Origin: Escherichia coli | GTDB lineage: Bacteria; Pseudomonadota; Gammaproteobacteria; Enterobacterales; Enterobacteriaceae | DNA: 64,000 nt | NCBI RefSeq assembly: GCF_001677475.2 | Contig: NZ_CP015229.1 | Reading direction: 5' to 3' (one strand) | Shown: one piece after another, positions 34,620 to 62,612 of the stretch | Numbering within the stretch: position 1 is the stretch's first letter | Layout: each line of letters begins with the position of its first letter | Notes under the pieces: generated by a model | What the model was told of the DNA's origin: nothing | Databases searched by the model: none | The model's input: only the letters and a program-made list of their open reading frames with translations | Position numbers and translations under genes: made by a program

Positions 34620-35444
34620 TTACTCCAGCGGCATTACCAGCGGATCGGGATACTGGTATTCAAACCCCAGTTCATTACAAATCCGACTGCCATCAATAAT
34701 CTTACCTTTGCCGCTGTCCAGACTATTTCTGAACTGCGGAGGTTCCAGCCCCAGTAAACGGGCCATCTGCGGATAGAAAACATTACGCGCAGGGTGAGCT
34801 GGCGCACATATATTATAGATGTGTCCGCCTTTAGGTGCCTGTAACAACAGAGTGATAGCGCCAATAACATCTTCTAAATGGACTAAATTAACACCATGTT
34901 CACCATCAGGCGCGGTTTTTCCGGCAAAGAAGCGTCCGGGATGACGTCCCGGTCCGACCAGCCCCGCAAGACGCAGAATATCGACCGAAGTACCGGGTAA
35001 ATTGTGCAGCCAGTCTTCGAGTTCTTCTAATACTCGTCCACTGTTGGTCACCGGATTACGCGGGGTGGTTTCTTTCACCGTGCCTTGCGCGTCGCCATAG
35101 ACAGATGTTGAGCTGGTAAAAATAATTCGGGGAATACGATGGGCCAGCGCGCTATCCACTAACTCTTGTACCGCTTGTAAATAGAACTCATCGCCGGGGC
35201 CGCTACGACGTGCCGGAAGCGTAATGACCAGCGCGTCGGCATCCATCAGGGCATCCAGATCGTCAGAATCGCAAACTAACTCAGGCTCCATGCGAAGCAG
35301 ATAGCTATCAATGCCACTCATTCGGGCCGCTTCGACACCATCTTGTGTGGTTTTACTCCCGGTGACTTGCCAGCCTCGCGCTGAAAGTGACATCGCCAGC
35401 GGCATGCCTAACCACCCTAACCCGACAATTGCGACCTTTTTCAT
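34620..35444 (-). CDS. yeeZ: NAD(P)-dependent epimerase/dehydratase family protein YeeZ
   Basis: 274 aa; Rossmann motif VAIVGLGWLG. Confidence 0.88.
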   Translation of the reverse strand: MKKVAIVGLGWLGMPLAMSLSARGWQVTGSKTTQDGVEAARMSGIDSYLLRMEPELVCDSDDLDALMDADALVITLPARRSGPGDEFYLQAVQELVDSALAHRIPRIIFTSSTSVYGDAQGTVKETTPRNPVTNSGRVLEELEDWLHNLPGTSVDILRLAGLVGPGRHPGRFFAGKTAPDGEHGVNLVHLEDVIGAITLLLQAPKGGHIYNICAPAHPARNVFYPQMARLLGLEPPQFRNSLDSGKGKIIDGSRICNELGFEYQYPDPLVMPLE

Positions 35445-35526
35445 CCGTTATCTCCTGATACACCTTAGATCTATAAGGCTACGCTAGCGTATCAAAACTG
35501 ACAATTCATTCTATGAATGAATCTGT

Positions 35527-35781
35527 TCAATAATGATAACGACATGCTGCAATGAGCAGTGAATCGTCGGTAACCGCGTATACCAGACGGTGCTCCTCTG
35601 TAATGCGTCGGGACCAGAAACCTGACAAATTATGTTTCAGGGGTTCTGGCTTCCCCTTACCTTCAAATGGCGTTCTGCGGGTATCTTTGATAAGTTCATT
35701 GATCTTTTTAACAATTCGCTTATCTGTTTCCTGCCAGTACAGATAATCATCCCATGATTCCTCAGACCAGATTAGTTTCAC
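35527..35781 (-). CDS. yoeB: Toxin YoeB (RelE-family mRNA interferase)
   Basis: 84 aa [68 protein letters not shown]...; overlaps the yefM stop. Confidence 0.95.
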
Positions 35782-36029
35782 TCAATAATGTCCTTTTCCG
35801 TTCCTTTGCCAGATTTCAGGCTATCGATTGAGTCCATCAATCTCCGGGCATTAGCGGGGGAACGCAGTAGATAAGCCGTCTCCTCCAGGGAGTTGTATTC
35901 TTCGAGTGACATCAGAACACAAGCCTCTCCATTCTGACGAGTAATAAGGATCGGGGCATGATCTTCAACGGCTTTCATCATTGTTGCCGACAAATTCTGA
36001 CGCGCTTCGCTGTAGCTAATTGTACGCAT
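35778..36029 (-). CDS. yefM: Antitoxin YefM
   Basis: 83 aa [58 protein letters not shown]... Confidence 0.95.
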
Positions 36030-36044
36030 GTTAATCTCCTCTTT

Positions 36045-36062
36045 TGTACATTTCATTGTACA
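36045..36062. promoter_or_regulatory. yefM-yoeB operator palindrome
   Basis: TGTACA-tttcat-TGTACA immediately upstream of the yefM start. Confidence 0.8.
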
Positions 36063-36312
36063 ATGATGGGCGTTAATTAACTATTTATTAATTAGTTTGT
36101 AGATCAAGATATTGTCAGTGAGTCGAAAAATACAGGCTTCGCTATTTTTGGTGCCGTCAGCTTAGAGGTCAGTCCTCTTAGCACCCTCCTTGCCCCGCTC
36201 ATTCATTAAACAAATCCATCGCCATAAAATATATAAAAAAGCCCTTGCTTTCTAACGTGAAAGTGGTTTAGGTTAAAAGACATCAGTTGAATAAACATTC
36301 ACAGAGACTTTT

Positions 36313-36363
36313 ATGACACGCGTTCAATTTAAACACCACCATCATCACCATCATCCTGACTAG
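36313..36363 (+). CDS. hisL: his operon leader peptide
   Basis: ATG ACA CGC GTT CAA TTT AAA CAC CAC CAT CAT CAC CAT CAT CCT GAC TAG = MTRVQFKHHHHHHHPD. Confidence 0.97.
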   Translation: MTRVQFKHHHHHHHPD

Positions 36364-36426
36364 TCTTTCAGGCGATGTGTGCTGGAAGACATTCAGATCT
36401 TCCAGTGGTGCATGAACGCATGAGAA

Positions 36427-36462
36427 AGCCCCCGGAAGATCATCTTCCGGGGGCTTTTTTAT
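36427..36462 (+). terminator. his attenuator (rho-independent terminator)
   Basis: AGCCCCCGGAAGATCATCTTCCGGGGGCT hairpin followed by TTTTTTATT, between hisL and hisG. Confidence 0.93.
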
Positions 36463-36508
36463 TGCGCGATTGATAACGGTTCAGACAGGTTTAAAGAGGA
36501 ATAACAAA

Positions 36509-37408
36509 ATGACAGACAACACTCGTTTACGCATAGCTATGCAGAAATCCGGCCGTTTAAGTGATGACTCACGCGAATTGCTGGCGCGCTGTGGCATTAA
36601 AATCAATCTTCACACCCAGCGCCTGATCGCGATGGCAGAAAACATGCCGATTGATATTCTGCGTGTGCGTGACGACGACATTCCCGGTCTGGTAATGGAT
36701 GGCGTAGTAGACCTTGGGATTATCGGCGAAAACGTGCTGGAAGAAGAGCTGCTTAACCGCCGCGCCCAGGGTGAAGATCCGCGCTACTTTACCCTGCGTC
36801 GACTGGATTTCGGCGGCTGCCGCCTTTCGCTGGCAACGCCGGTTGATGAAGCCTGGGACGGCCCGCTCTCCTTAAACGGTAAACGTATTGCCACCTCTTA
36901 TCCTCACCTGCTCAAGCGTTATCTCGACCAGAAAGGCATCTCTTTTAAATCCTGCTTGCTGAACGGTTCTGTTGAAGTCGCCCCGCGCGCCGGACTGGCG
37001 GATGCAATTTGCGATCTGGTTTCCACCGGTGCCACGCTGGAAGCTAACGGCCTGCGCGAAGTCGAAGTTATCTACCGCTCGAAAGCCTGCCTGATCCAGC
37101 GCGATGGCGAAATGGAAGAATCCAAACAGCAGCTGATCGACAAACTGCTGACCCGTATTCAGGGTGTGATCCAAGCGCGCGAATCAAAATACATCATGAT
37201 GCACGCACCGACCGAACGTCTGGATGAAGTCATCGCCCTGCTGCCAGGTGCCGAACGCCCAACTATTCTACCGCTGGCGGGTGATCAACAGCGCGTAGCG
37301 ATGCACATGGTCAGTAGCGAAACCCTGTTCTGGGAAACGATGGAAAAACTGAAAGCGCTGGGTGCCAGTTCAATTCTGGTCCTGCCGATTGAGAAGATGA
37401 TGGAGTGA
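36509..37408 (+). CDS. hisG: ATP phosphoribosyltransferase
   Basis: [34 protein letters not shown]...; start taken at MTDNT. Confidence 0.97.
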
Positions 37409-47596: not shown

Positions 47597-47787
47597 TGTT
47601 TACTCCTGTCAGGGGGTTACCGCGGGATTGCGCGGCTTGAATATGAAACAGATGTTAACTCAAGTTACATGAATGTGTGTAGTGCTGAATTTCATTAATG
47701 CAACGAATACCGTTCATCTTCCTTTATACAGACATCCACTTGTAACCAAACCTACGCGCACATGTAAGCGAAGATAAATCTATAACA

Positions 47788-49212
47788 TCAAGAAATTAAA
47801 GATATAATACTCCCAAGCACATTCGTAACATATTGCTTAGCCTGATTTTCATCACTGCCTTCAGCGTAACAACGGAGTTCAGGGGCATTTCCGGAAGGAC
47901 GGAGATGTATAATATCACCATTAGTTAAAATAAATCTTGCACCATCAGTTTCATCAATAGTGGAACAGGATAATGATTCATACCCTAATTTATTAAAGAA
48001 ATTATTAGGTGATGAAATGGCATTTTTTATAATTTGCTGACTTGACTCTGAAGGAAAGTTTTTCACTCTATCTGACCAAGTAAATCGCTGTGGAAGATTA
48101 TTAACCAGTTGAGAGATAGTACTATTGCGAGAAGCTATTAAGAGCATTAACGCTGGTAATACTGCATCTCGAGTAGGTAACGCATTTAATTCTTTGCCAT
48201 TAATTTGTAAATCGGAGGCAAGCAGAAAACCGCCATTAGCTTCAAAACCAGCGACTGAATCAAATTGTTTAGCAAGTTCTGAAAACGCTGCAATCACATA
48301 AGGAGAGCCAATTTTAGTCCGTTGTGTATTTGCAAATTTATTAGATTGTTCAATTGCTGTATTACAACTCACTGGAATAGCCAACGCCTTGATATTAAGT
48401 TCAATAGCCGTAAGTAATCCCAGAATATCGCCTCGTAGCCATTCACCATTTTCATCGGCAACTAAAGGGCGATCACCATCACCATCTGTTGAGAAAATTG
48501 CATCGAGATTGTATTTTTTAGACCACTCTCTTGCAAGTAGACGATCTTCTTCGCTAACTGCTTCCGTATCAATAGGAACGAACTCATCACTTCTACCGAG
48601 GGAGATGACCTCAGCACCCAATTGATTAAAAAGTGGAGCATATAAATCTCGTCCTGCACTAGAATGTTCATAGATCCCAATTCTCTTCCCCTTTAAAATA
48701 TCGGAATTAAAAAGAGAAACATAACGTTCTAGGTATGAATCCGCACCTTGAGTACTTGTTTCAAGATGAGGTAATACATCTACAGGAGAAAAAACATATT
48801 CACTATTTACTATTGCTAACTCATCCTCTTTTGTGATTTCACCATCTGGACGGTAAAATTTCAAACCATTACGGTCAAAAGGTATGTGACTACCGGTAAC
48901 CATTATGCAGGGGATGTTTTTCTGCATGGAATAATGAGCTAATGCAGGGGTCGGAATTACACCATGATATTCAACAGCGAACCCATGTTGTTTGATAGCG
49001 AACGCGCATGCCTGAGCAATTTCATAACTACTCGGGCGATTGTCAATGGCTAAAGCAACTTTATTAAAATTGTATTTGTCATCAATAACAGAAAGAAACG
49101 CATGACTGAAGGCTGCACAAACATCATGGGTAAAATCGATGACTAAACCACGAGCACCACTAGTGCCGAAAGCAATATTGCTATCGGTAATGATTTTGTT
49201 AGCATTTAACAT
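47788..49212 (-). CDS. manB: Phosphomannomutase
   Basis: 474 aa alpha-D-phosphohexomutase; active-site TGSHIP and metal-binding DGDGDR. Confidence 0.88.
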   Translation of the reverse strand: MLNANKIITDSNIAFGTSGARGLVIDFTHDVCAAFSHAFLSVIDDKYNFNKVALAIDNRPSSYEIAQACAFAIKQHGFAVEYHGVIPTPALAHYSMQKNIPCIMVTGSHIPFDRNGLKFYRPDGEITKEDELAIVNSEYVFSPVDVLPHLETSTQGADSYLERYVSLFNSDILKGKRIGIYEHSSAGRDLYAPLFNQLGAEVISLGRSDEFVPIDTEAVSEEDRLLAREWSKKYNLDAIFSTDGDGDRPLVADENGEWLRGDILGLLTAIELNIKALAIPVSCNTAIEQSNKFANTQRTKIGSPYVIAAFSELAKQFDSVAGFEANGGFLLASDLQINGKELNALPTRDAVLPALMLLIASRNSTISQLVNNLPQRFTWSDRVKNFPSESSQQIIKNAISSPNNFFNKLGYESLSCSTIDETDGARFILTNGDIIHLRPSGNAPELRCYAEGSDENQAKQYVTNVLGSIISLIS

Positions 49213-49217
49213 GATGA

Positions 49218-49964
49218 TTACTTCTTAATAAATTGAGGAAGTTTGGATAGATTTTTATACGCTAAAGCTATTGGCCAGATAATACCATTCTGTTTCATAG
49301 CGCGAATATCTTCCATTGATTTATTGATCATGGAAGATGCTGAGCGATTGCTAATTCCACCAACACGCATTTTCACTAATACTTTTGGTAAGTAAGCTAT
49401 TGAAATACGCTGTTTTAAAATATAACGTAATAATGAGTCATAATCAGCAGATATTCGGTAATCTAATGAAAAACAACCAAACTCACTATAACAATCGCGT
49501 TTCATATAAAATGATGGGTGTGGCGGCATCCAACCTAGTTTCATCTTCAAACGGCTAAATGAGCCACTCTTCCATAATCTAATACGTTTAGTCGTATCAT
49601 TTTGGGCAACATACTCCAAATCACCATAAACAGCATCACACCCTGAACTTTCAAATGTTTTTACTATATCTGCAATAGCATCGTCATAAGCAAGTAAGTC
49701 ATCAGAGTGCAAAAATCCAATTATATCACCAGAAGCTGCTTGAATACCTTTATTCAGTGCATCATAAATACCATTGTCGGGTTCGCAAATGATTGTTGAA
49801 ACTCTTGTACATTTACTCTTGATTAGCTCTATTGTATTATCTTTCGATGCTCCATCTACAACTATATATTCAATATCTGAATGCGTTTGTTTTTCCAGAG
49901 AGAGTAATGTATCAAGAAGCGTTTTTTCACTATTATAAGTTGCTGTGATAATTGAAATCCGCAT
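49218..49964 (-). CDS. Glycosyltransferase, family 2
   Basis: 248 aa MRISIITATYNSEKTLLDTLLSLEKQTHSDIEYIVVDGASKDNT... (GT-A fold). Confidence 0.8.
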   Translation of the reverse strand: MRISIITATYNSEKTLLDTLLSLEKQTHSDIEYIVVDGASKDNTIELIKSKCTRVSTIICEPDNGIYDALNKGIQAASGDIIGFLHSDDLLAYDDAIADIVKTFESSGCDAVYGDLEYVAQNDTTKRIRLWKSGSFSRLKMKLGWMPPHPSFYMKRDCYSEFGCFSLDYRISADYDSLLRYILKQRISIAYLPKVLVKMRVGGISNRSASSMINKSMEDIRAMKQNGIIWPIALAYKNLSKLPQFIKK

Positions 49965-51370
49965 TAGTATCCAACTCCAGAAGAAGAAACTCTTATAACA
50001 TCATCCTCTTCCAAGTAGACTCCTGATCTAACCTCAATTATTTCAAGTGGGATCTTGCCAGGATTTTCAATGGCATGTGGAACACCAACAGGTATATATG
50101 TTGATTCATTTTCTGAAACAAGATAAGTTTTCTCCTCAAGATGAACTTTAGCTGTCCCCGAAACAACAATCCAATGTTCAGTACGATGGTAATGGATCTG
50201 CTTAGCGGTAATGTGACCCGGTAATACAATCACATGTTTAACCTGAAAGCGTTGCCCTTCAGCTATAGTGTCATGACTGCCCCAAGGACGAAAAATTTCC
50301 CGATGTTGTAAATATTCTGTTCGATTATTCTTTTTAAGCTGAGCTACGATGTTTTTAACTTGCTGAACTTTATCTTTATGAGCAACTAATACTGCATCTT
50401 TCGTTTCAACGACAACCAAATCCTTTACGCCCACGGCACCAATAAGTCTATGCTGCGAATAAAGATAACTATCTGTAGCATCCTCAACCAAAACATCACC
50501 ACGAATGGCATTGCCGCTTTGGTCTTTTGAACTTATTTCCCACAGCGCAGACCATGACCCAACATCACTCCATTGCGCATCCAATGGTACGACTACAGCT
50601 TCTGCTGTTTTTTCCATAACGGCATAGTCGATTGACTCTTCAGGGCAGCAAGAAAAAGAAGAATTATCCAAGCGGATAAAATCTAAATCTTGAGTCGAGG
50701 AAGCTAAGGATTGCTGACAACTCTCTAGAATATCTGGACGGAATTTTTTTAGTTCATCGATGAATACAGATGCTCTGAACATAAACATTCCACTATTCCA
50801 AAGATAACCGCCATCTGACAAATACCGCTGAGCTAATTCTAGCTCTGGCTTTTCAACAAAAGCTGCAACTTTATAACCTTGCCCACTAAGTGGATCACCT
50901 GACTTAATATAGCCATACCCTGTCTCTGGAGCTGTTGGAACAATGCCAAATGTGACCAACTTACCTTGCTGCGCAAACTCCTTCGCGGCCAAAACTGCTG
51001 TAATGAAACTATTCTCATCCTGAATTTCATGGTCAGCCGCAAGAACTAAAAGTATAGGATCCTCTCCACTTGCCGTTGCCTGAAGCGCTGCAAGGGCTAC
51101 AGCTGGTGCCGTATTGCGCCCAACAGGCTCAAGCAAAATCCCACTATGCTTTAAACCAACTTTACGTAATTGTTCAGCAACGATGAAACGATGTGATTCA
51201 TTACAAATGATCAAAGCAGGATTGTGTTCAACCTTTTCTAGCCGTCGCATAGTCTCTTGCAACATAGTTAAGCGGCTATTTAAAGACAGAAATTGTTTCG
51301 GATAAAGTGTACGTGAAAGAGGCCATAATCTGGTACCAGATCCACCGGCCATGACAACGGGAAGTAGCAT
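49964..51370 (-). CDS. manC: Mannose-1-phosphate guanylyltransferase / mannose-6-phosphate isomerase
   Basis: 468 aa [28 protein letters not shown]... with C-terminal cupin. Confidence 0.92.
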   Translation of the reverse strand: MLLPVVMAGGSGTRLWPLSRTLYPKQFLSLNSRLTMLQETMRRLEKVEHNPALIICNESHRFIVAEQLRKVGLKHSGILLEPVGRNTAPAVALAALQATASGEDPILLVLAADHEIQDENSFITAVLAAKEFAQQGKLVTFGIVPTAPETGYGYIKSGDPLSGQGYKVAAFVEKPELELAQRYLSDGGYLWNSGMFMFRASVFIDELKKFRPDILESCQQSLASSTQDLDFIRLDNSSFSCCPEESIDYAVMEKTAEAVVVPLDAQWSDVGSWSALWEISSKDQSGNAIRGDVLVEDATDSYLYSQHRLIGAVGVKDLVVVETKDAVLVAHKDKVQQVKNIVAQLKKNNRTEYLQHREIFRPWGSHDTIAEGQRFQVKHVIVLPGHITAKQIHYHRTEHWIVVSGTAKVHLEEKTYLVSENESTYIPVGVPHAIENPGKIPLEIIEVRSGVYLEEDDVIRVSSSGVGY

Positions 51371-51375
51371 ATCTA

Positions 51376-51837
51376 TTACCTTGATATAAAATAATTTTTG
51401 GTATATTGATGAACTGTAGTGCTATTAAGCAACGTTACTACATCAAACCACTTGTAGGAATTATGCTGAATCGTTGGTAGGCGAAGTTGCTGCGGATTAA
51501 TTTGAATTTCATATCCATGCACTACGTAGTGTGTAGAAAAATCTAGTTCAGAAAAATTGTCATTGTAAAAGTGTTCATACACACCAAGAAATATGGCCTC
51601 ACCAAGACTAGTTTGAACGCCTAACTCTTCATATGTGATCCTTTTAAAAGCATCCTCGAATGACTCGTCCTTAAAAATTCGCCCTCCAGGCACAAACCAA
51701 TAATTTTTTGCGGGGCGATTCAGGCGCTGCCCAAGCAGCGCCTCTCCTTTATCATTTCTAATTATGAGGTCAATCGAGATTAGAGGAGTATGCTTGACTA
51801 TTGTTTTAAATAACTCATATTCTAATCTCTTTTTCAT
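51376..51837 (-). CDS. gmm: GDP-mannose mannosyl hydrolase (Nudix)
   Basis: 153 aa Nudix box GGRIFKDESFEDAFKRITYEELG. Confidence 0.88.
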   Translation of the reverse strand: MKKRLEYELFKTIVKHTPLISIDLIIRNDKGEALLGQRLNRPAKNYWFVPGGRIFKDESFEDAFKRITYEELGVQTSLGEAIFLGVYEHFYNDNFSELDFSTHYVVHGYEIQINPQQLRLPTIQHNSYKWFDVVTLLNSTTVHQYTKNYFISR

Positions 51838-51839
51838 AA

Positions 51840-52805
51840 CTATCCCCGAAAAGAATCAATATTCTCAAGAAACCATTGATATGTTAATGATAGACCTTCA
51901 TGTAAATTATAGCGATGTAGCCAGCCCAAGTTTTTGAGTCGGGTAACGTCCATAAGCTTTCGCGGGGTGCCATCTGGTTTGGTCGCGTCAAAAACAATTT
52001 TTCCTTGATAACCCACTACAGAAGCCATTGTTTCAGCCATTTCACGTATAGAACAATCCACCCCCGTACCAACATTAATATGAGATAACATTGGTTGTGT
52101 ATTTTGTTGATAGATTGTGTCCTCTAACTCCATCACATGAACCGAGGCAGCAGCCATATCATCAACATATAAAAACTCACGCATCGGTGTTCCCGTGCCC
52201 CAGACAATAACTTCTTGTGCACCACTTTCTTTTGCCTCATGGAATCTACGCATAAGCGCCGGAATAACATGGGAGTTTTCAGGATGGAAGTTATCATTCG
52301 AACCATAAAGATTAGTCGGCATTACACTTCTATAATCGCGACCATATTGACGATTATAAGACTCACATAATTTTATGCCCGCAATCTTAGCAATTGCGTA
52401 TGGCTCATTAGTTGGCTCAAGTATGCCCGTCAAAAGTGCAGACTCTTTCATCGGCTGCTCTGCAAATTTTGGATAAATGCAGCTAGAGCCTAAAAAAAGT
52501 AATTTTTGAATTCCAACCTTGTGAGCTGAATGTATAATATTACTCTCAATCATGAGATTCTGATAAATGAATTCTGCTGGAAATGTATTATTGGCATAAA
52601 TACCACCTACTTTTGCCGCAGCAAGATAAACCTGATCAACCCTCTCTCTCTCAAAAAATGCCTCAACATCCTTCTGCACGGTCAGATCGAGTTCTTTGTG
52701 TGTTTTAACCACTAACTCGATATCATCACGCAGCGATAATTGTCGGCAAATAGCAGAGCCAACCATGCCCTGGTGCCCAGCAACATATACTCTTTTCTTT
52801 ATCAT
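51840..52805 (-). CDS. fcl: GDP-L-fucose synthase
   Basis: 321 aa [23 protein letters not shown]... Confidence 0.93.
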
Positions 52806-52808
52806 GTA

Positions 52809-53942
52809 TTAACGCTCCAGAGAAACCGAAACATCATAACCATGGCTTTTAAGAAGTGCATGTTGTTTCGCTTTTAACAAATCGCTAGCAACCATTTCTG
52901 CACACATCTCTTCAACTGTAATCTCTGGTTCCCAGCCTAATAGATTTTTTGCTTTTGCAGGGTCACCTAAGAGTGTTTCAACTTCAGCAGGACGGAAATA
53001 ACGAGGATCAACCCGAACTATAACGTCTCCAACATTTACACCAATAGCACAATCGGAAACTTTATTAACTACTGTGGCTATCTCATCTACACCCTCACCA
53101 GTGAATTCAAGTTCAAGTCCGACTTCTTTAGCAGCCATACGGACAAATTCACGCACAGATATCTGTTTACCTGTGGCGATGACAAAATCCTCTGGATGAT
53201 CTTGCTGAAGCATCATCCATTGCATGCGAACATAATCTTTAGCGTGTCCCCAGTCACGCAACGAATCCAGATTACCCAAATATAAGCATTGTTCGATCCC
53301 CTGAGAAATATTAGCTATTGCACGAGTAATTTTACGAGTAACAAAAGTTTCTCCACGGCGTGGCGATTCATGGTTAAAAAGAATACCATTACAAGCATAT
53401 ATACCATAAGATTCACGGTAGTTAACTGTTATCCAGTAAGCATACATCTTAGCTACAGCATAAGGCGAACGCGGGTAGAATGGAGTTGTTTCACGCTGAG
53501 GAATCTCTTGCACTAAACCAAAAAGTTCTGAAGTAGATGCTTGATAGAAACGTGTTTTTTTCTCCAGCCCACAGATTCGTATTGCTTCTAATAAACGTAA
53601 TGTACCTATTGCATCTACATCTGCTGTATATTCTGGTGACTCGAATGATACTGCGACATGGGATTGTGCACCAAGGTTATAAATTTCATCCGGTTGAATT
53701 TCTTGGATTAAACGGATCAGATTCGATGTATCTGTTAAATCCCCATAGTGTAAAATAAAATTAGGCTCATCAACGAATCGTGATTGATATATATGATCAA
53801 TTCTATCAGTGTTAAATGACGATGCTCGGCGTTTTATACCATGTACTTCATAACCTTTTTCAATAAGAAATTCAGCAAGATATGAACCATCTTGTCCAGT
53901 TACGCCTGTGATAAATGCAACTTTTTTATTCATTTTAATCAT
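52809..53942 (-). CDS. gmd: GDP-mannose 4,6-dehydratase (true start may be 9 nt downstream, at [10 protein letters not shown])
   Basis: 377 aa; [19 protein letters not shown]... SDR-type dehydratase. Confidence 0.95.
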
Positions 53943-53951
53943 GTTATGTTC

Positions 53952-54983
53952 CTAAATATTCAACTCATTATAAACTTTAATCGTTTCATTAACACATTTT
54001 GACCATGAAAATTTTTGCGCCTGCAGTAAACCTCTTTCGATCATAACATTTCTTTTTAAATTAACTAATTCTAAAGCTTCTTTTAACGTAAACTCATTAA
54101 TATCATCAATATAAATAGGCGCATTCCCCCCTACTTCCGGCAACGAGGATGTGTTTGCACAAATAACTGGACATCCGGCCTGCATAGCTTCTAGGACAGG
54201 TATTCCAAACCCCTCATAACTGGAAGGGTAAACAAGTGCATATGCAGTATTATACTGTATATTTAAATCTTCATTACTCAAAAATGTAAAATGTTCATAT
54301 CTATTTTTTAAATATTTTTCAAGGAGTTCTCTTTCATATTTTTTAAGCGAGCCTCCGCCTACAATTGTAAGCTTTAAGCCATGTAATTTCCCTACAGCTT
54401 TGACTGCAAGAACGAAATTTTTATAACCTTCTCTGGCACCGACAAACAAAACTGAATTATTTACTCTCATATCAGATATGTTAGAAATATGTTTATATGA
54501 TGGGGATACACCATTATAAATCACTCTAATTTTATCTTCACTAATTGGACAGTACTTAAGTAAATCTCTAGCAGTGTTGTTTGAAATACAAATTACGATA
54601 TCACTATTCTTGATAGCATGATATTTTTGAAGAGAATGAATAAATTTTGACATTCCTCCCCTGTATTTTTCATAGGTAAAATCATGAACAGTTGTAACAT
54701 TTTTCACATTCAAATTAGGATTTTTATGAACTCGATAATAACTTGAGTGTAAAACCCTAGTTTTAATATCACTTACATTTCTATATCTTTCTAAAATTCT
54801 TGGCTCACGATATTGCAACTTTAAGTCACTTGTATCAAACTCAAATTCTTTATTTTTATACAATAGAATTTCAGCTTGGTAATTTGATTTCACCATTCCT
54901 TGGATCAACTCATTAAAGTATACACTTATTCCACCAAATGATTGGAGATTATAAATAATCCCATCGATAGTTACCATTATCAT
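53952..54983 (-). CDS. Glycosyltransferase, family 4 (GT-B)
   Basis: 343 aa with EGFGIPVLEAMQAGCPVI motif. Confidence 0.82.
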   Translation of the reverse strand: MIMVTIDGIIYNLQSFGGISVYFNELIQGMVKSNYQAEILLYKNKEFEFDTSDLKLQYREPRILERYRNVSDIKTRVLHSSYYRVHKNPNLNVKNVTTVHDFTYEKYRGGMSKFIHSLQKYHAIKNSDIVICISNNTARDLLKYCPISEDKIRVIYNGVSPSYKHISNISDMRVNNSVLFVGAREGYKNFVLAVKAVGKLHGLKLTIVGGGSLKKYERELLEKYLKNRYEHFTFLSNEDLNIQYNTAYALVYPSSYEGFGIPVLEAMQAGCPVICANTSSLPEVGGNAPIYIDDINEFTLKEALELVNLKRNVMIERGLLQAQKFSWSKCVNETIKVYNELNI

Positions 54984-56236
54984 CGCCCTCGCAAGGTAAT
55001 ACGTTCGATTAGAACGAACAATATCAAAAAGAAGATCAGTAACAATACATATGCAGGCCCAGAAAAATAAGTTCCAAATGAAGGTGAAATGAGAATTATA
55101 GAAAGCAAAAAATAGGATGCAGAGTTCGTAATTACTTTTGCATTAAACATTTTAAGCTTAGCAAAAATATAGCCATAAAAGATATTCATAGGTGAAAGAA
55201 AAGTTAAAATGACCAGTCCAACATATCCATAATCAACAAAATTATCCATCCCTTTTGAAAAAGCAGGTGTATGCCCCGACTCTGCAGCTCCTGGATAATA
55301 GATTTCATTTACATGCAGAAATCCATATACAAAAGGTTTATCAGGAAACAAACCTCTCGGTATATAAGACCAAAACTGGCTGAAATAGACTGTGCCATTG
55401 AAAAATTTAACCACACCTTTATCAATATCTTGCAGCAAATAAATACTGTTTTGATACTGGTCAAAATAAGACAATACTACATCGACATTCATATTTCCAA
55501 TAGCTAAAAATAAATTATAGAGAATGGCACACGCTGCCAGAGGTGTAACTAAAATCAGGCCAAATTTTAGAAATCTAGATTTATTAAGACTTAACACTGC
55601 AAGATAAAAAATCGCAAATGAAAGAATAAAGGTTTTCGATCCAAGAAAAAAAACCAAGGTACAATAGAATATCGCGCATAAAAATAATTTTATTTCCGAG
55701 CGTAAAGCCAACGCTCTAGAAAAATAAGATACTGAAAGCATACTTAAAGAAAAGGCATACAAAAAACCATTACCTTCTCGATAGTTTTGATAACCATCCC
55801 TGGGATTCGTCAACCATCCAGAAATACCTATTTCTGACTTTGAAGAAAGAAGAACAAATAATGTAACAAACAGAACCAATGTAATATTTGATATTCTTTT
55901 TAATTTTGTATGCGAAATTAAGCAAGTTAAATAGCTCTCTCTATTTTTGAATATTATATTAAAAATAAAATAAAATAAAATTATAGATAAAACACCCACA
56001 AAAGAGTATATGTTATATATGAATAAAGCCTCATTATAATATTGATTTAACGCAAAGTCTGAACCATAGAAAAGAGGGGCCAGAATATTTTCCAATAGAA
56101 AAACCGGGAATAAAATAATGGCGCAAATGGTAAAGGGATTGATAATTGTAAGTCTTAGCGTTTTCGTCGCTAATAAAGAAAAAGAAAAATATAGTACTAC
56201 AGCGAGTGTAACATTTAAACAATATATTATTACCAC
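54980..56236 (-). CDS. wzy: Putative O-antigen polymerase Wzy
   Basis: 418 aa, about 10-12 predicted TM helices with a large loop; position inside the O-antigen cluster; very AT-rich. Confidence 0.7.
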   Translation of the reverse strand: MVIIYCLNVTLAVVLYFSFSLLATKTLRLTIINPFTICAIILFPVFLLENILAPLFYGSDFALNQYYNEALFIYNIYSFVGVLSIILFYFIFNIIFKNRESYLTCLISHTKLKRISNITLVLFVTLFVLLSSKSEIGISGWLTNPRDGYQNYREGNGFLYAFSLSMLSVSYFSRALALRSEIKLFLCAIFYCTLVFFLGSKTFILSFAIFYLAVLSLNKSRFLKFGLILVTPLAACAILYNLFLAIGNMNVDVVLSYFDQYQNSIYLLQDIDKGVVKFFNGTVYFSQFWSYIPRGLFPDKPFVYGFLHVNEIYYPGAAESGHTPAFSKGMDNFVDYGYVGLVILTFLSPMNIFYGYIFAKLKMFNAKVITNSASYFLLSIILISPSFGTYFSGPAYVLLLIFFLILFVLIERITLRGR

Positions 56237-56246
56237 ATCCTCTCCC

Positions 56247-57056
56247 CTATCTTAAACCGAATAATTTGCGCTTAATTGATTTTGTTTTTTGATATAATGT
56301 TTGAGGAACAATCATTTTAAATAAAACTTGCAATGTATTATAGACAGCAAATTTTATTTTGTATGATAAGGGCATATGAATATTATTTTTAGCTAGAATG
56401 TAAGCAATTTCTTTCTTGACTAATTTTTTATTAGACTCATTTGAACTTACACCCGAAGCATCCATTATGGATACAGGAAAATTCACATAATGCAACGTAG
56501 ATGGATCTATTGTTCTTATCATAAAATCACTATCAGCAGCAATTTTTAGTGTTGTATCAAAGCGATTAGCATTATCTTTAAAAAAGCTAGAATGCTGGAA
56601 AGTACCCTGATGAGGAGGAAGTGAAGGCCGACCACATTCCCACTTTTTCTGTATTTTTCCGTAAACTCCAACTATATTATCTTTATCACTAAAATATACA
56701 TCACCATATATAGTTGTTGCACTCATATTTTCGTGAATGGCATTTGCTATTTTTGAAAGAGTATTATTTTCATAGAATGTATCGCCAGCTCCCATAAAAA
56801 TAACCCAATCGCCATTTATGTGAGGAAGAGCTTTATTCCAAGCGTCGTATATTCCTTGATCAGATTCGCATAAAAAATAATCTATAATATCAATATATCT
56901 ATAAATATATTCTAGTGTTGATTTGTTAGAGTTGCCGTCTATAACAATCCATTGAATATTACAATAATTTTGATTTTTAATAGATTCTGCAGTCTTGCAG
57001 AAATCTTCCTCACAATTATACGTCGATGTTATTATAGTAATCTGTAAGCCATTCAT
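56247..57056 (-). CDS. Glycosyltransferase, family 2
   Basis: 269 aa MNGLQITIITSTYNCEEDFCKTAESIKNQNYCNIQWIVIDGNSN... Confidence 0.8.
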   Translation of the reverse strand: MNGLQITIITSTYNCEEDFCKTAESIKNQNYCNIQWIVIDGNSNKSTLEYIYRYIDIIDYFLCESDQGIYDAWNKALPHINGDWVIFMGAGDTFYENNTLSKIANAIHENMSATTIYGDVYFSDKDNIVGVYGKIQKKWECGRPSLPPHQGTFQHSSFFKDNANRFDTTLKIAADSDFMIRTIDPSTLHYVNFPVSIMDASGVSSNESNKKLVKKEIAYILAKNNIHMPLSYKIKFAVYNTLQVLFKMIVPQTLYQKTKSIKRKLFGLR

Positions 57057-57062
57057 CTTAAC

Positions 57063-57773
57063 TCACTTATTTTTCATAGCAATATATTTTAATCTTAATT
57101 CTTTAATTAATGTCTTTACTTTACTATCAGTGGAATACTCAATATTAAACGTGCCAGAGACTCCTCTTATTTTGGGAATAGTTGTTCCAATAACTCCTTT
57201 TAATTTATTATTTTTAATTTGCTCAAAAAAAATGTGTTCTAAATAAACACCATCAAGGTCACGCACAGATTTATAAGAATTAGCAAAAAAGTCCCAATAT
57301 ATTTTTTTATTTACAACATAAAATCTTGTATCAATCATATTTTCATTCAGAAAAGGAACTGGTATAAAAAAAGCTTTACCATTGAATGCATTTATACATT
57401 GCTTATAATTATCGACGTATAGTTTTGATGTTATTTTTGCAAAACTTTCAGCATTAGACAAATAGCGGCTATTCATTAATGCATACTCAATTATTTCACC
57501 CTCTCCGTAACCTTTACCATAAGATTGAACACTTTCTATATCATTTTTGAAATGTATTATCTCGATCGAATCTTTATTAAGTATTTGTTTATCATTATGA
57601 ATATCTTTCGTCAAATCATAATCACTACCATCACATATTACTATAGAATCAGCATTCTTTGACAACTCTCTTATCGCTTTCAATGTATGTAATAATCTTG
57701 AATTTTCATCAGAAAGATTTGTAAGAGGAGCATTAGGTGAGATACAAGAAGTCACTAATACTGGGATTTTCAT
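57063..57773 (-). CDS. Putative O-antigen glycosyltransferase, family unassigned (236 aa from MKIPVLVTS)
   Basis: ATG overlaps the wzx stop (ATGA); the tracker ORF extends 46 codons further, into wzx; no recognisable GT2/GT4 signature. Confidence 0.55.
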   Translation of the reverse strand: MKIPVLVTSCISPNAPLTNLSDENSRLLHTLKAIRELSKNADSIVICDGSDYDLTKDIHNDKQILNKDSIEIIHFKNDIESVQSYGKGYGEGEIIEYALMNSRYLSNAESFAKITSKLYVDNYKQCINAFNGKAFFIPVPFLNENMIDTRFYVVNKKIYWDFFANSYKSVRDLDGVYLEHIFFEQIKNNKLKGVIGTTIPKIRGVSGTFNIEYSTDSKVKTLIKELRLKYIAMKNK

Positions 57774-59014
57774 TTTTTCTTTTCCAGCCTCAACGAAATT
57801 AACATTAGTATAAAATAATCGACGGTGACTCTTGCGCTCCAAGCATAAGCCACACCTGCTACAGAAAAATACATAATTGAAAAATATAAAACCAGCAGAT
57901 ATGGAATACATTCAACAAGATGAATGAGCCCCGTAATATTTGCATAACCTTTCGATTGGATTTGAGCAAATGGAACTTGAGCAAGAGAGTTGAATACAAA
58001 ACCTACTAATAATATTTGAAATATATAAGGACTCTCAGTGCTATATTGTTTTCCAAGCCATAAAGTTATAATATCACCAGCCTTCAAAGAAAACATAATA
58101 GCTATAACTATACTAGTTACACTTATTAATAACGTAGCCTCTTTTATTATTTTTCTCCGCTCATCTTTTGTATTATTCTTGCATAGAGCAGGAAAAACTG
58201 TCCTTGCTATAGTTGTCGGTAATATAAGTAACTTTGAAATTGCATCTGCAGGAGCAATATATAACGAAGCTTTAGCGGGGCCAACTGCATTTGATAAGAT
58301 AAATCGATCAATATTTGTAAGCAATGGGTTAATTATACTACTAATACTCGCCCATCCTCCAAAACTTAATAGTGCTTTTGTTTTACTTAGACTAAAATCC
58401 ATTGTAAGCCTATTATTTCTAAAAACAAAGAACACGCTTAAAAGAGCACCAACTATTCTCGCAATCACCAATCCCAAAGTAGCATTAAGCAAACCAACAT
58501 TTCCATGAATGAAAATAACTGGTAGTAGCGCAGTTAACACACCTGTAATTGTTTTTTGTACATTCAATAATTTGAACTTTTCATATCCTTCTAATATCCC
58601 CCAACAAACCATATTAAGAAGATAAAATGGCAGACAGTAGGATAAAATACTTATAGCATATGCAACACTTTCAGTTTGTTCCGGACCACTAATTAAGGAT
58701 GCAATCTTATGGTCGCAGTAATAAAAAATTACGGCTACAACAACACCAATAGATAATGTTAATAAAAATGATGTTGTAATTATTTGACTGGTTGCCTTTT
58801 TGTCGTTTTTATTTAATGATATTTCACGCACAACGGCTCGGGAAAGTCCGAGATCAAATATACTTGCGTATCCAACTATTGTAAAAAACATTAAAAAAAA
58901 GCCAAAGTTAGTTATTCCTAACTCCCTTGCCAAATACCCCATCGCAGGTATTGACAATAAAGTTGGGATTGCATACCCAACCAAATTTATTAAACTATTT
59001 ATTTTAATACTCAT
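57770..59014 (-). CDS. wzx: O-antigen flippase Wzx
   Basis: 414 aa, 12-TM polysaccharide-transporter-like, MSIKINSLINLVGYAIPTLLSIPAMGYLAR... Confidence 0.85.
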   Translation of the reverse strand: MSIKINSLINLVGYAIPTLLSIPAMGYLARELGITNFGFFLMFFTIVGYASIFDLGLSRAVVREISLNKNDKKATSQIITTSFLLTLSIGVVVAVIFYYCDHKIASLISGPEQTESVAYAISILSYCLPFYLLNMVCWGILEGYEKFKLLNVQKTITGVLTALLPVIFIHGNVGLLNATLGLVIARIVGALLSVFFVFRNNRLTMDFSLSKTKALLSFGGWASISSIINPLLTNIDRFILSNAVGPAKASLYIAPADAISKLLILPTTIARTVFPALCKNNTKDERRKIIKEATLLISVTSIVIAIMFSLKAGDIITLWLGKQYSTESPYIFQILLVGFVFNSLAQVPFAQIQSKGYANITGLIHLVECIPYLLVLYFSIMYFSVAGVAYAWSARVTVDYFILMLISLRLEKKK

Positions 59015-59031
59015 TTTTTAATTATCTTTTG

Positions 59032-59574
59032 TCAATAATTATTTTGTATAAATGGAGTGCCCAAACAATCTTTTTGTGATAAAAGAGGTTCTTTGTATAA
59101 TTGCCAATCTATGTTAAGTAAAGCATCATTCCAAATGATACATTTCTCATGTTCTTTTGAGTAAAAATTATTGGTCTTATACAATATTTCTGAACCTTCT
59201 TCTTTTACATAAAAACCATGTGCAAATCCCTCAGGGATCCACAACTGGCGCTTATTCTCAGCAGATAAATTCACCCCAACCCACTTGCCAAAAGTAGGTG
59301 ACGATTTACGAATATCAACCGCAACATCAAAAACCTCACCAACAACGCAACGTACCAATTTCCCTTGCGCATAAGGTTCTAACTGATAATGCAGCCCGCG
59401 TAAAACACCTTTACTAGACTTCGAATGGTTATCCTGGACAAATTCAACCTTACGTCCTACAGCTTCTTCGAATACTTTCTGATTAAAGCTTTCCATAAAG
59501 AAACCACGCTCATCACCAAAAACTTTCGGCTCGAAAATTAACACATCAGGAATTTCTGTTTTAATTACGTTCAT
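59032..59574 (-). CDS. rmlC: dTDP-4-dehydrorhamnose 3,5-epimerase
   Basis: 180 aa MNVIKTEIPDVLIFEPKVFGDERGFFMESF... Confidence 0.95.
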   Translation of the reverse strand: MNVIKTEIPDVLIFEPKVFGDERGFFMESFNQKVFEEAVGRKVEFVQDNHSKSSKGVLRGLHYQLEPYAQGKLVRCVVGEVFDVAVDIRKSSPTFGKWVGVNLSAENKRQLWIPEGFAHGFYVKEEGSEILYKTNNFYSKEHEKCIIWNDALLNIDWQLYKEPLLSQKDCLGTPFIQNNY

Positions 59575-59578
59575 TTTA

Positions 59579-60457
59579 TTAATAACCTTTAATCATTTTC
59601 AGCAGATACTGTCCATAAGCATTTTTTTTCAGCGGCTCCGCTAATGCTTTCACCTGTTCAGCATCAATAAACCCTTTACGGTAAGCAATTTCTTCTGGGC
59701 AGGAAACCTTTAGTCCCTGGCGCTCTTCAATGGTGGCAATGAAGTTGCTTGCTTCAATAAGACTCTGATGTGTCCCCGTATCCAGCCATGCATAACCACG
59801 CCCCATCATGGCAACGGATAAACGCCCCTGTTCCATATAAATACGGTTAATATCGGTAATTTCCAGTTCACCACGGGCAGAAGGCTTAAGGTTTTTCGCC
59901 ATTTCGACAACGTCGTTATCATAGAAATAAAGCCCGGTTACCGCATAATTACTTTTTGGTTGTAGCGGTTTTTCTTCCAGGCAGATCGCCGTACCGTTTT
60001 TATCAAACTCAACGACACCGTAGCGTTCAGGATCATTAACGTGATAGGCAAATACCGTTGCACCACTTTCTTTGTTAACAGCGACATCCATTAACTTCGG
60101 CAGATCATGACCGTAGAAGATATTATCACCAAGAACCAAAGCACAATCATCACCACCGATAAACTCTTCACCGATAATAAACGCCTGCGCAAGCCCATCT
60201 GGAGTCGGTTGCACTTTGTACTGAAGATTTAGCCCCCACTGGCTACCGTCACCCAGCAGTTGTTGAAAACGAGGAGTATCCTGTGGCGTACTAATAATCA
60301 GAATATCGCGAATACCCGCCAACATCAGTGTAGAGAGCGGGTAATAGATCATCGGCTTATCATAAATAGGTAATAGCTGTTTACTGACAGCCATAGTCAC
60401 AGGATAAAGACGTGTACCAGAACCACCCGCTAAAATAATACCTTTACGCGTTTTCAT
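59579..60457 (-). CDS. rmlA: Glucose-1-phosphate thymidylyltransferase
   Basis: 292 aa [42 protein letters not shown]... Confidence 0.97.
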
Positions 60458-60514
60458 TTCATCATTCCTTTTAATTCATCTTGCTCCACCATCACGAACA
60501 AGATGCAAAAACTA

Positions 60515-61414
60515 TTAAATTGCTGTAGTCGTAAATAATTCGTTGAGCATTCGTTTCACACCAACCTGCCACTCAGGCAAGACAAGCGCAAAGTTCTGCT
60601 GAAATTTTTCTGTATTAAGGCGAGAGTTATGTGGACGACGAGCTGGTGTAGGATAGGCTGTTGTTGGTACTGCGTTGAGCTTGTTGAGTGCAAGGGGAAT
60701 ACCTGCTTTGCGCGCCTCTTCAAAAACCAGCGCAGCATAATCGTGCCAGGTTGTGGTACCACTGGCTACCAGATGGTACAAACCTGCGACTTCCGGTTTA
60801 TTCAGTGCCACACGAATAACATGTGCCGTACAATCAGCCAGCAGCTCAGCACCTGTTGGCGCACCAAATTGATCATTTATCACAGCCAGTTCTTCGCGCT
60901 CTTTTGCCAGACGCAACATCGTTTTGGCGAAGTTATTTCCTTTACCTGCGTATACCCAGCTGGTACGGAAAATAAGATGCTTCGCGCAATGTTCCTGTAA
61001 CGCTTTTTCTCCGGCTAACTTGGTTTCACCGTAAACATTTAGCGGTGCGGTTGCATCCGTCTCCAGCCATGGCGTGTCGCCATTTCCAGGGAAGACGTAG
61101 TCAGTTGAGTAATGAATTACCCAAGCCCCAACTTCATTAGCCGCTTTTGCAATTGATTCAACGCTAGTCGCATTGAGTAATTGTGCAAATTCGGGTTCTG
61201 ACTCAGCCTTATCTACTGCGGTGTGAGCCGCAGCATTAACAATAACATCAGGTCGAATTCTTTTGACTGTTTCAGCTACACCTTCAGGATTACTAAAATC
61301 ACCACAATAATCAGTGGAGTGAACATCAAGAGCAATCAAATTACCCAAAGGTGCCAGAGCACGCTGTAGTTCCCAACCTACCTGCCCTGTTTTGCCGAAA
61401 AGGAGGATATTCAT
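60515..61414 (-). CDS. rmlD: dTDP-4-dehydrorhamnose reductase
   Basis: 299 aa [30 protein letters not shown]... Confidence 0.96.
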   Translation of the reverse strand: MNILLFGKTGQVGWELQRALAPLGNLIALDVHSTDYCGDFSNPEGVAETVKRIRPDVIVNAAAHTAVDKAESEPEFAQLLNATSVESIAKAANEVGAWVIHYSTDYVFPGNGDTPWLETDATAPLNVYGETKLAGEKALQEHCAKHLIFRTSWVYAGKGNNFAKTMLRLAKEREELAVINDQFGAPTGAELLADCTAHVIRVALNKPEVAGLYHLVASGTTTWHDYAALVFEEARKAGIPLALNKLNAVPTTAYPTPARRPHNSRLNTEKFQQNFALVLPEWQVGVKRMLNELFTTTAI

Positions 61415-62499
61415 TACTGGCGGCCCTCATAGTTCTGTGCAATCCACGATTGATAGGCACCACTTTTCACATTATCAACCCATTTTGTATTGGACAGGTA
61501 CCATTCCACTGTCTTCCGAATCCCGCTCTCAAACGTTTCCTGCGGTTTCCAGCCCAATTCGCGGCTAATCTTCTCAGCATCAATCGCATAACGGCGATCG
61601 TGTCCCGGGCGGTCGGCAACATAAGTAATTTGCTCACGATAAGATTTCTCTTTCGGTACAATCTCATCCAGCAAATCACAAATAGTAAGCACTACATCGA
61701 TGTTTTTCTTTTCGTTGTGTCCGCCAATATTATAGGTTTCGCCTGCTTTACCTTCAGTAACGACTGTATATAACGCTCGAGCATGATCCTCGACATACAA
61801 CCAATCGCGAATTTGATCCCCTTTACCATAAATAGGTAATGCTTTACCTTCCAGAGCATTCAGAATAACCAATGGAATCAATTTTTCCGGGAAATGATAA
61901 GGGCCATAATTGTTAGAGCAATTAGTCACAATGGTCGGTAAACCATAGGTACGTTTCCACGCGCGGACTAAATGATCGCTGGATGCTTTGGATGCGGAAT
62001 AAGGGCTGCTTGGTGCGTAAGCTGTTGTCTCAGTAAATAAGGGTAATTTTTCTTTATTATTTACTTCGTCAGGATGAGGCAAATCACCATAGACTTCGTC
62101 AGTAGAAATATGATGAAAACGGAAGCTATTTTTCTTGTCGCTATCAAGAGCAGACCAGTAATTGCGAGCGGCTTCCAAAAGGACATAAGTACCAACAATA
62201 TTGGTTTCAATAAATGCCGCAGGGCCTGTAATTGAACGATCCACATGGCTTTCAGCAGCCAGGTGCATCACTGCATCCGGCTGATGCAGAGCAAAAATCC
62301 GCGCCATTGCAGCAGCATCGCAAATATCCGCATGTTCAAAAACATAGCGTTCAGAATCAGAAACATCAGCAAGTGATTCCAGGTTTCCGGCGTACGTTAA
62401 TTTATCGACATTAACAACACTATCCTGCGTATTATTTATAATGTGACGAACTACAGCAGAACCAATAAATCCTGCGCCACCAGTAACAAGTATTTTCAC
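61414..62499 (-). CDS. rmlB: dTDP-glucose 4,6-dehydratase
   Basis: 361 aa [43 protein letters not shown]... Confidence 0.97.
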
Positions 62500-62573
62500 T
62501 TAATTATTCCATATTACTTCAGAGCATGCTGTGAAATAAGCGGCTCTTAGTTTGATTAATAGAGGTATTAATG

Positions 62574-62612
62574 CACGCTACCGCCCCTGGCTTTACAGCT
62601 ACCAGAGCACTG
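62574..62612 (-). promoter_or_regulatory. JUMPstart element with ops (RfaH-dependent antitermination site) in the O-antigen operon leader
   Basis: Minus strand reads CAGTGCTCTGGTAGCTGTAAAGCCAGGGGCGGTAGCGTG; ops core GGCGGTAGCGTG. Confidence 0.9.

Follow-up and report, generated by a model that had tools for sequence, protein, structure and literature searches.

Introduction

In Escherichia coli K-12, the type II toxin-antitoxin genes yefM and yoeB (b2017/b4539; PDB 2A6Q, 2A6R, 2A6S, 4V8X, 6OTR, 6OXA, 6OXI) form a chromosomal operon between yeeZ and hisL. Its published promoter, pyy, consists of the hexamers TaGttA and TAcAAT separated by a 17-bp linker, with transcription starting at a G, and binding to the operator blocks access of RNA polymerase (PMC7730913). 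Repression is exerted primarily by YefM and is strengthened by YoeB; a long palindrome (L), which is the primary YefM binding site, is bound before a short repeat (S), and the spacer sequences vary widely across species while the spacing of the cores stays fixed (PMC1802561). The toxin cleaves mRNA in the ribosomal A site after the second nucleotide by acid-base catalysis involving Glu46 and His83, with further residues named as transition-state stabilisers and mRNA contacts (PMC3814384), and YoeB has been reported to become activated in a Lon-dependent manner when the temperature is raised (PMC4554461).

Related systems share parts of this design. Axe-Txe of the Enterococcus faecium plasmid pRUM is a homologous pair, composed of a Phd/YefM-type antitoxin and a YoeB-type toxin, whose operator likewise pairs two TGTACA cores at a distance of 12 bp and whose -10 box is also TAcAAT, but it is plasmid-borne, has a much stronger -35 box (TTGctt), shows less complete repression, and carries its L repeat in the linker between the -10 and -35 boxes, whereas in the E. 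coli chromosomal type this repeat lies over the -10 box (PMC7730913). RelBE, YafQ, and HigB resemble YoeB in the RelE-type microbial RNase fold and in the cleavage of mRNA at the ribosomal A site; unlike these relatives, YoeB possesses a complete Glu/His pair of general base and general acid (PMC3814384), and its partner belongs to the Phd/YefM antitoxin family, in contrast to RelB in RelBE (Pfam).

Here we analysed a 64-kb stretch of E. coli DNA (hereafter the window), with a particular emphasis on the region between yeeZ and hisL, which almost certainly carries the intact yefM-yoeB operon at its usual chromosomal site. The locus represents well-studied, already known biology with wild-type proteins and regulatory elements, and the result matters little beyond correct annotation. 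The YefM-YoeB pair is among the best-characterised ribosome-dependent mRNase toxin-antitoxin pairs. The identification draws on features observed in the window: the order and overlap of the genes, the identity of the proteins, the catalytic residues, the sequences of operator and promoter, and synteny.

The toxin and antitoxin genes

Both genes are complete and overlapping, as proposed in an initial annotation of this DNA; their coordinates and those of the associated elements are listed in Table 1. The overlap comprises 4 nt (GTGA, 35778-35781), with the TGA stop codon of yefM overlapping the GTG start codon of yoeB.

Table 1. Features of the yefM-yoeB locus and its surroundings in the window.
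Feature	Position	Strand	Description	Basis
A+T-rich hairpin	35497..35531	minus	Over the yoeB stop codon, followed by UUUU at 35494-35497	Fold energy
Variable segment	35522..36174	both	653 bp; module, promoter, and about 145 bp upstream	Mapped against O157:H7 F7349
yoeB	35527..35781	minus	84 aa; GTG start, TGA stop codon at 35527-35529; ribosome-dependent mRNA endonuclease toxin	
yefM	35778..36029	minus	83 aa; ATG start, TGA stop; antitoxin and autorepressor	
AAGGA	35791..35795	minus	Putative Shine-Dalgarno-like motif for yoeB within the yefM 3' end, 9 nt before GTG	Read from the sequence
GAGGAG	36036..36041	minus	yefM Shine-Dalgarno, 6 nt before ATG	Sequence; PMC1802561
S (short) operator repeat	36045..36050	both	Core TGTACA; contains the transcription start	
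Transcription start (+1)	36049	minus	G	ATGs at +21/-7 (PMC1802561); base G (PMC7730913)
L (long) operator palindrome	36053..36066	both	TCATTGTACAATGA	Exact match to the palindrome of PMC1802561
-10 box (pyy promoter)	36055..36060	minus	TACAAT, within the L palindrome	PMC7730913 (TAcAAT)
-35 box	36078..36083	minus	TAGTTA, 17 bp upstream of -10	PMC7730913 (TaGttA, 17-bp linker)
hisL	36313..36363	plus	Leader peptide gene, MTRVQFKHHHHHHHPD; divergent neighbour, context only	Sequence and annotation

The predicted toxin is identical to chain E of PDB entry 2A6Q over all 84 residues (100%), and chains identical to it are also present in the other K-12 entries cited above and in 6NY6. It matches the Pfam family YoeB_toxin (PF06769) with 146.3 bits (cut-off 27), covering the full profile (1-80), which together with the 2A6Q_E identity places it in the YoeB/Txe family. 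Weaker sequence matches in PDB include RelK/RelJ of Mycobacterium tuberculosis. Inactivating substitutions in catalytic residues had been named as the finding that would speak against a functional toxin. The residues described by Feng et al. as general base, general acid, transition-state stabilisers, and mRNA contacts (PMC3814384), namely Glu46, Arg59, Glu63, Arg65, His83, and Tyr84, are all kept at the expected positions, and YoeB carries no inactivating substitution among them. The antitoxin is likewise identical to its structurally characterised counterpart (83/83 residues, 100%, 2A6Q chain A) and matches PhdYeFM_antitox (PF02604) with 96.8 bits (cut-off 29.8), so that a Phd/YefM-family antitoxin gene lies directly upstream of the toxin gene and overlaps it.

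A longer yefM frame of 92 aa, starting from an ATG at 36056 in the mechanical list of open reading frames, was rejected, because published mapping places the translation start at 36029; Kedzierska et al. showed that the alternative ATG, at position -7, precedes the first transcribed base and that the codon used for initiation is the ATG at +21, 6 bp away from the ribosome binding site (PMC1802561). The GTGA overlap, together with the AAGGA motif 9 nt before the yoeB GTG, suggests that the two genes are probably translationally coupled.

Downstream of yoeB, the hairpin over its stop codon (-14 kcal/mol, z = -2.15) folds no more stably than 9 of 200 shuffled sequences and is thus marginal; it could possibly act as a weak terminator or as an RNA-stability element between yoeB and yeeZ. 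A terminator scan of 35400-36500 called no terminator after yoeB.

The module is flanked by yeeY and yeeZ on the minus strand, downstream of yoeB, and by hisL-hisG-hisD on the plus strand, and the order yeeY-yeeZ-yoeB-yefM-hisL-hisG is the same as in K-12 and in the annotation of strain KV7, which identifies the orthologous position. The module had been described as lying immediately upstream of hisL; it does adjoin this gene, but yefM and yoeB are encoded on the minus strand and transcribed divergently from it, with 284 bp between the yefM and hisL ATG codons. An Rfam search of 35000-37000 at permissive thresholds returned the His leader (His_leader, 36339..36462, 132.6 bits) and no RNA family in or around the toxin-antitoxin module.

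Promoter and operator

The operator motif TGTACA-N6-TGTACA (TGTACATTTCATTGTACA) occupies 36045..36062 and has no second match in the 64 kb when one mismatch is tolerated; 0.04 occurrences are expected by chance in the window, and a match was present in 4 of 100 shuffled sequences. Its presence had been noted correctly, but it had been placed at the yefM start; its actual position is 16-33 nt upstream of the ATG, where it covers the -10 box and the transcription start. The core of the L palindrome (36057-36062) is 12 bp from the S core, centre to centre, a spacing identical to that reported (PMC1802561), and the upstream core is extended to TCATTGTACAATGA over the promoter. The span initially annotated runs from 35527, the last base of the yoeB stop codon, to 36062, the last base of the distal TGTACA; the functional unit continues beyond the latter, with the L palindrome reaching 36066 and the -35 box 36083.

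Read on the minus strand, the promoter region has the arrangement TAGTTA-17 bp-TACAAT-GAAAT-G(+1), followed by GAGGAG-ATTAAC-ATG. The promoter was placed from published K-12 primer-extension coordinates, and its assignment therefore depends on the K-12 mapping. A scan of 35400-36500 for consensus promoters reported no minus-strand promoter at yefM, because the -35 box TAGTTA matches the consensus at only three of six positions. With its L repeat over the -10 box, the module has the E. coli chromosomal arrangement and not that of Axe-Txe.

A third near-core sequence, TGTACG, occurs at 36021-36026, in codons 2-3 of yefM near the start codon, and is also present in K-12. Its distance from the S core, exactly 24 bp (2 x 12), places it in helical phase with the operator repeats.

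Expected mode of action

In the source strain, the weak sigma-70 promoter (TAGTTA, 17 bp, TACAAT) would start minus-strand transcription at G36049, and translation would proceed for yefM from the ATG at 36029 and for yoeB from the GTG overlapping the yefM stop codon. A YefM dimer would then bind YoeB and block its active site; Kamada and Hanaoka reportedly described in 2005 a YefM2-YoeB complex (structure 2A6Q) in which the toxin is occluded by YefM. YefM, and more tightly the YefM2-YoeB complex, is predicted to bind first the L palindrome and second the S repeat, and the bound complex would cover the -10 box and the start site and so shut off the operon. Degradation of YefM by Lon protease, for example at high temperature, would leave YoeB free to enter the ribosomal A site and to cut mRNA behind the second position of the codon there, upon which translation would stall; in this reaction the general base would be Glu46 and the general acid His83, and the transition state would be stabilised by Arg65 and Tyr84.

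The module is expected to be functional, as the initial annotation had anticipated, and this appears to be the best reading in view of the identity with the K-12 proteins and the conserved promoter-operator. Expression, repression, toxicity, neutralisation, and Lon dependence in the source strain are what we infer by analogy with experiments in K-12, and the structures, operator maps, and activation data published for K-12 should apply directly to this wild-type copy.

Comparison with E. coli K-12

Comparison with the K-12 locus, which had been suggested as a check, bears out the identification: YefM and YoeB show 100% identity to their K-12 counterparts, the two RefSeq accessions WP_000767829.1 and WP_001259255.1 are common to K-12 MG1655 and KV7, the synteny is the same, and the mapped regulatory elements are kept. 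The gene order, the 4-nt overlap, the L and S repeats, the -10 and -35 boxes, the Shine-Dalgarno sequence, and the start base are shared. Over 35445-36312 (868 bp), where KV7 is the best match and 100% identical to the window, K-12 differs at 20 nucleotides, 7 of them coding and 13 in the yefM-hisL intergenic region. The coding differences, six in yefM and one in yoeB, all fall at third positions and are synonymous (7/7); with no non-synonymous change, this pattern is indicative of purifying selection on both proteins, the probability of an all-synonymous outcome by chance being below about 1e-4 in a rough estimate that assumes about a quarter of random substitutions to be synonymous.

None of the differences affects the core hexamers, the L palindrome, the -10 and -35 boxes, the Shine-Dalgarno sequence, the +1 base, or the 12-bp spacing, and an alignment of five E. 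coli strains shows no variation in these elements. Three differences lie near the promoter, namely T36032 (C in K-12), between the Shine-Dalgarno sequence and the ATG, T36051 (G in K-12), in the N6 spacer at position -2, and G36069 (A in K-12), in the linker between the -10 and -35 boxes. T36051 is absent from the four other aligned strains (K-12, strain 38, an ST131 strain, and 22AR0434), and the 81-bp promoter-operator haplotype (window 36020-36100) is uncommon, being found in its exact form in 24 of 3729 matching E. coli genomes. These promoter differences, including T36051, are expected to be without functional consequence, because the spacer sequence varies freely and the spacing is fixed (PMC1802561).

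Alleles of the yeeZ-hisL site

To place the module in the diversity of the species, 5426 complete E. coli genomes were surveyed, the module being counted where at least 80% of the 868-bp region was covered. The full module is present in 4211 of them (approximately 78%), while in 1197 its place is taken by an O157:H7-type filler of 210 bp, and 4 have an intermediate allele of the type found in strain HH97. The module can thus be used as a presence/absence marker, approximately 78% of genomes possessing it and approximately 22%, including O157:H7, retaining only a decayed stub. The replaced segment extends from 5 nt past the yoeB stop codon to 145 bp upstream of the yefM ATG, and the corresponding positions are 1578-1787 in the F7349 locus sequence and 312-960 in that of HH97.

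The HH97 allele consists of a decayed yefM and the 5' end of yoeB, identical to window 35713-36100 at 287 of 393 positions; it has many indels and no open reading frame, yet it preserves a perfect 44-bp block of operator and -35 box. Over shared columns, HH97 and the O157:H7 filler are 94.7% identical, and the filler retains a degenerate trace of the operator; because of these two features, the "empty" O157:H7-type allele looks like what is left of a resident module after decay, and not like a vacant site. The filler also contains units that are REP-like by comparison with the REP consensus. A literature search for an account of the absence of yefM-yoeB in O157:H7 returned nothing specific.

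An inverted repeat, GCTTAGAGG-TCAGT-CCTCTTAGC, is located at 36159-36181, where the variable segment ends on the right. Its 9-bp stem is perfect in K-12 and has one mismatch in the window, and in O157:H7 only the right arm is present; no T-run follows the repeat on either strand.

Alternative explanations

That the open reading frames and the palindrome are chance features or belong to a pseudogenised remnant is an idea prompted only by general caution, as lists of open reading frames are mechanical. It is refuted by the full-length 100% identity to structurally solved proteins, the strong Pfam scores, and the residue-level comparison, and it is further opposed by the single occurrence of an operator expected 0.04 times and by the appearance of a genuine remnant, that of HH97, with its indels and lack of a reading frame; we therefore consider it vanishingly improbable. 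A different proposal accepts the intact module and holds that the rare haplotype (T36032, T36051, G36069) changes promoter strength or weakens repression by YefM-YoeB, in which case steady-state levels of the module would differ from those in K-12. The rarity of the exact 81-bp form and the location of T36051 between the operator cores, within the region of the DNase I footprint (PMC1802561), are consistent with this proposal, but all core elements and their spacing are unchanged, spacers are diverse across species while spacing is conserved (PMC1802561), and promoter activity did not change substantially when the +1 base was exchanged (PMC7730913), which makes an effect of the haplotype very improbable. 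Improbable, too, is the combined view that the haplotype measurably resets autoregulation and that the site represents a decay series in which the orphan operator of HH97 is possibly under selection. Such a series may have led from the intact module through the operator-keeping yefM remnant (4 genomes) to the REP-bearing O157:H7-type stub (1197 genomes), and the orphan operator might have been kept as a site for a paralogous YefM-like repressor or for divergent control of the his region. Neither the haplotype nor the decay series alters the identity of the element in the window.

A further question is whether the module, although expressed, has any physiological consequence, or whether it is a selfish, addictive pair that is maintained because its loss is difficult and whose toxin is rarely or never freed in vivo. 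Several studies have cast doubt on the release of toxins from chromosomal type II systems under stress, and this doubt favours a selfish pair, as do the existence of decayed remnants and the lack of the module at this site in approximately 22% of complete E. coli genomes, which indicates that it is dispensable. On the other hand, the excess of synonymous over non-synonymous differences from K-12 (7 to 0) points to purifying selection, Lon-dependent activation of YoeB has been described at high temperature (PMC4554461), and PMC4963858 cites a role when strain CFT073 colonises the bladder. On balance, we consider the selfish pair somewhat unlikely; it concerns the role of the module and leaves its identity as the intact yefM-yoeB operon, as well as its biochemical mechanism, as they are.

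Sequence context of the locus

The close relationship with KV7 is confined to part of the window. Only positions 25066-45724 align with the KV7 region, at 95.8-99.0% identity, which rules out that the whole window is KV7 sequence; for the flanks, the best identities among complete genomes are 98.1-98.2%.

At the left end (1-2375), an element of the IS21 family interrupts cbl, a gene for a LysR-type regulator. The element comprises the C-terminal part of IstA (18-1022) and IstB (1019-1774; PF01695, 209 bits), homology to intact E. coli cbl starts only at window position 1840, and the cbl frame on the minus strand (1665-2375) runs into the IS sequence. The stretch from approximately 1840 to 25000 contains nac, ldtA, cobTSU, pocR-pduF, and a full propanediol-utilisation (pdu) microcompartment operon, and it is covered to at least 80% in only 624 of the 5426 complete E. 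coli genomes; KV7 has at the same position a CP4-44-like island with a pduV stub. Towards the right end, between gnd and galF (approximately 47600-62600), lies an O-antigen gene cluster of the O36 family, assigned from the annotation of wzx and wzy in matching genomes; its best match is 98.2% identical, and the cluster is covered to at least 80% in only 8 genomes.
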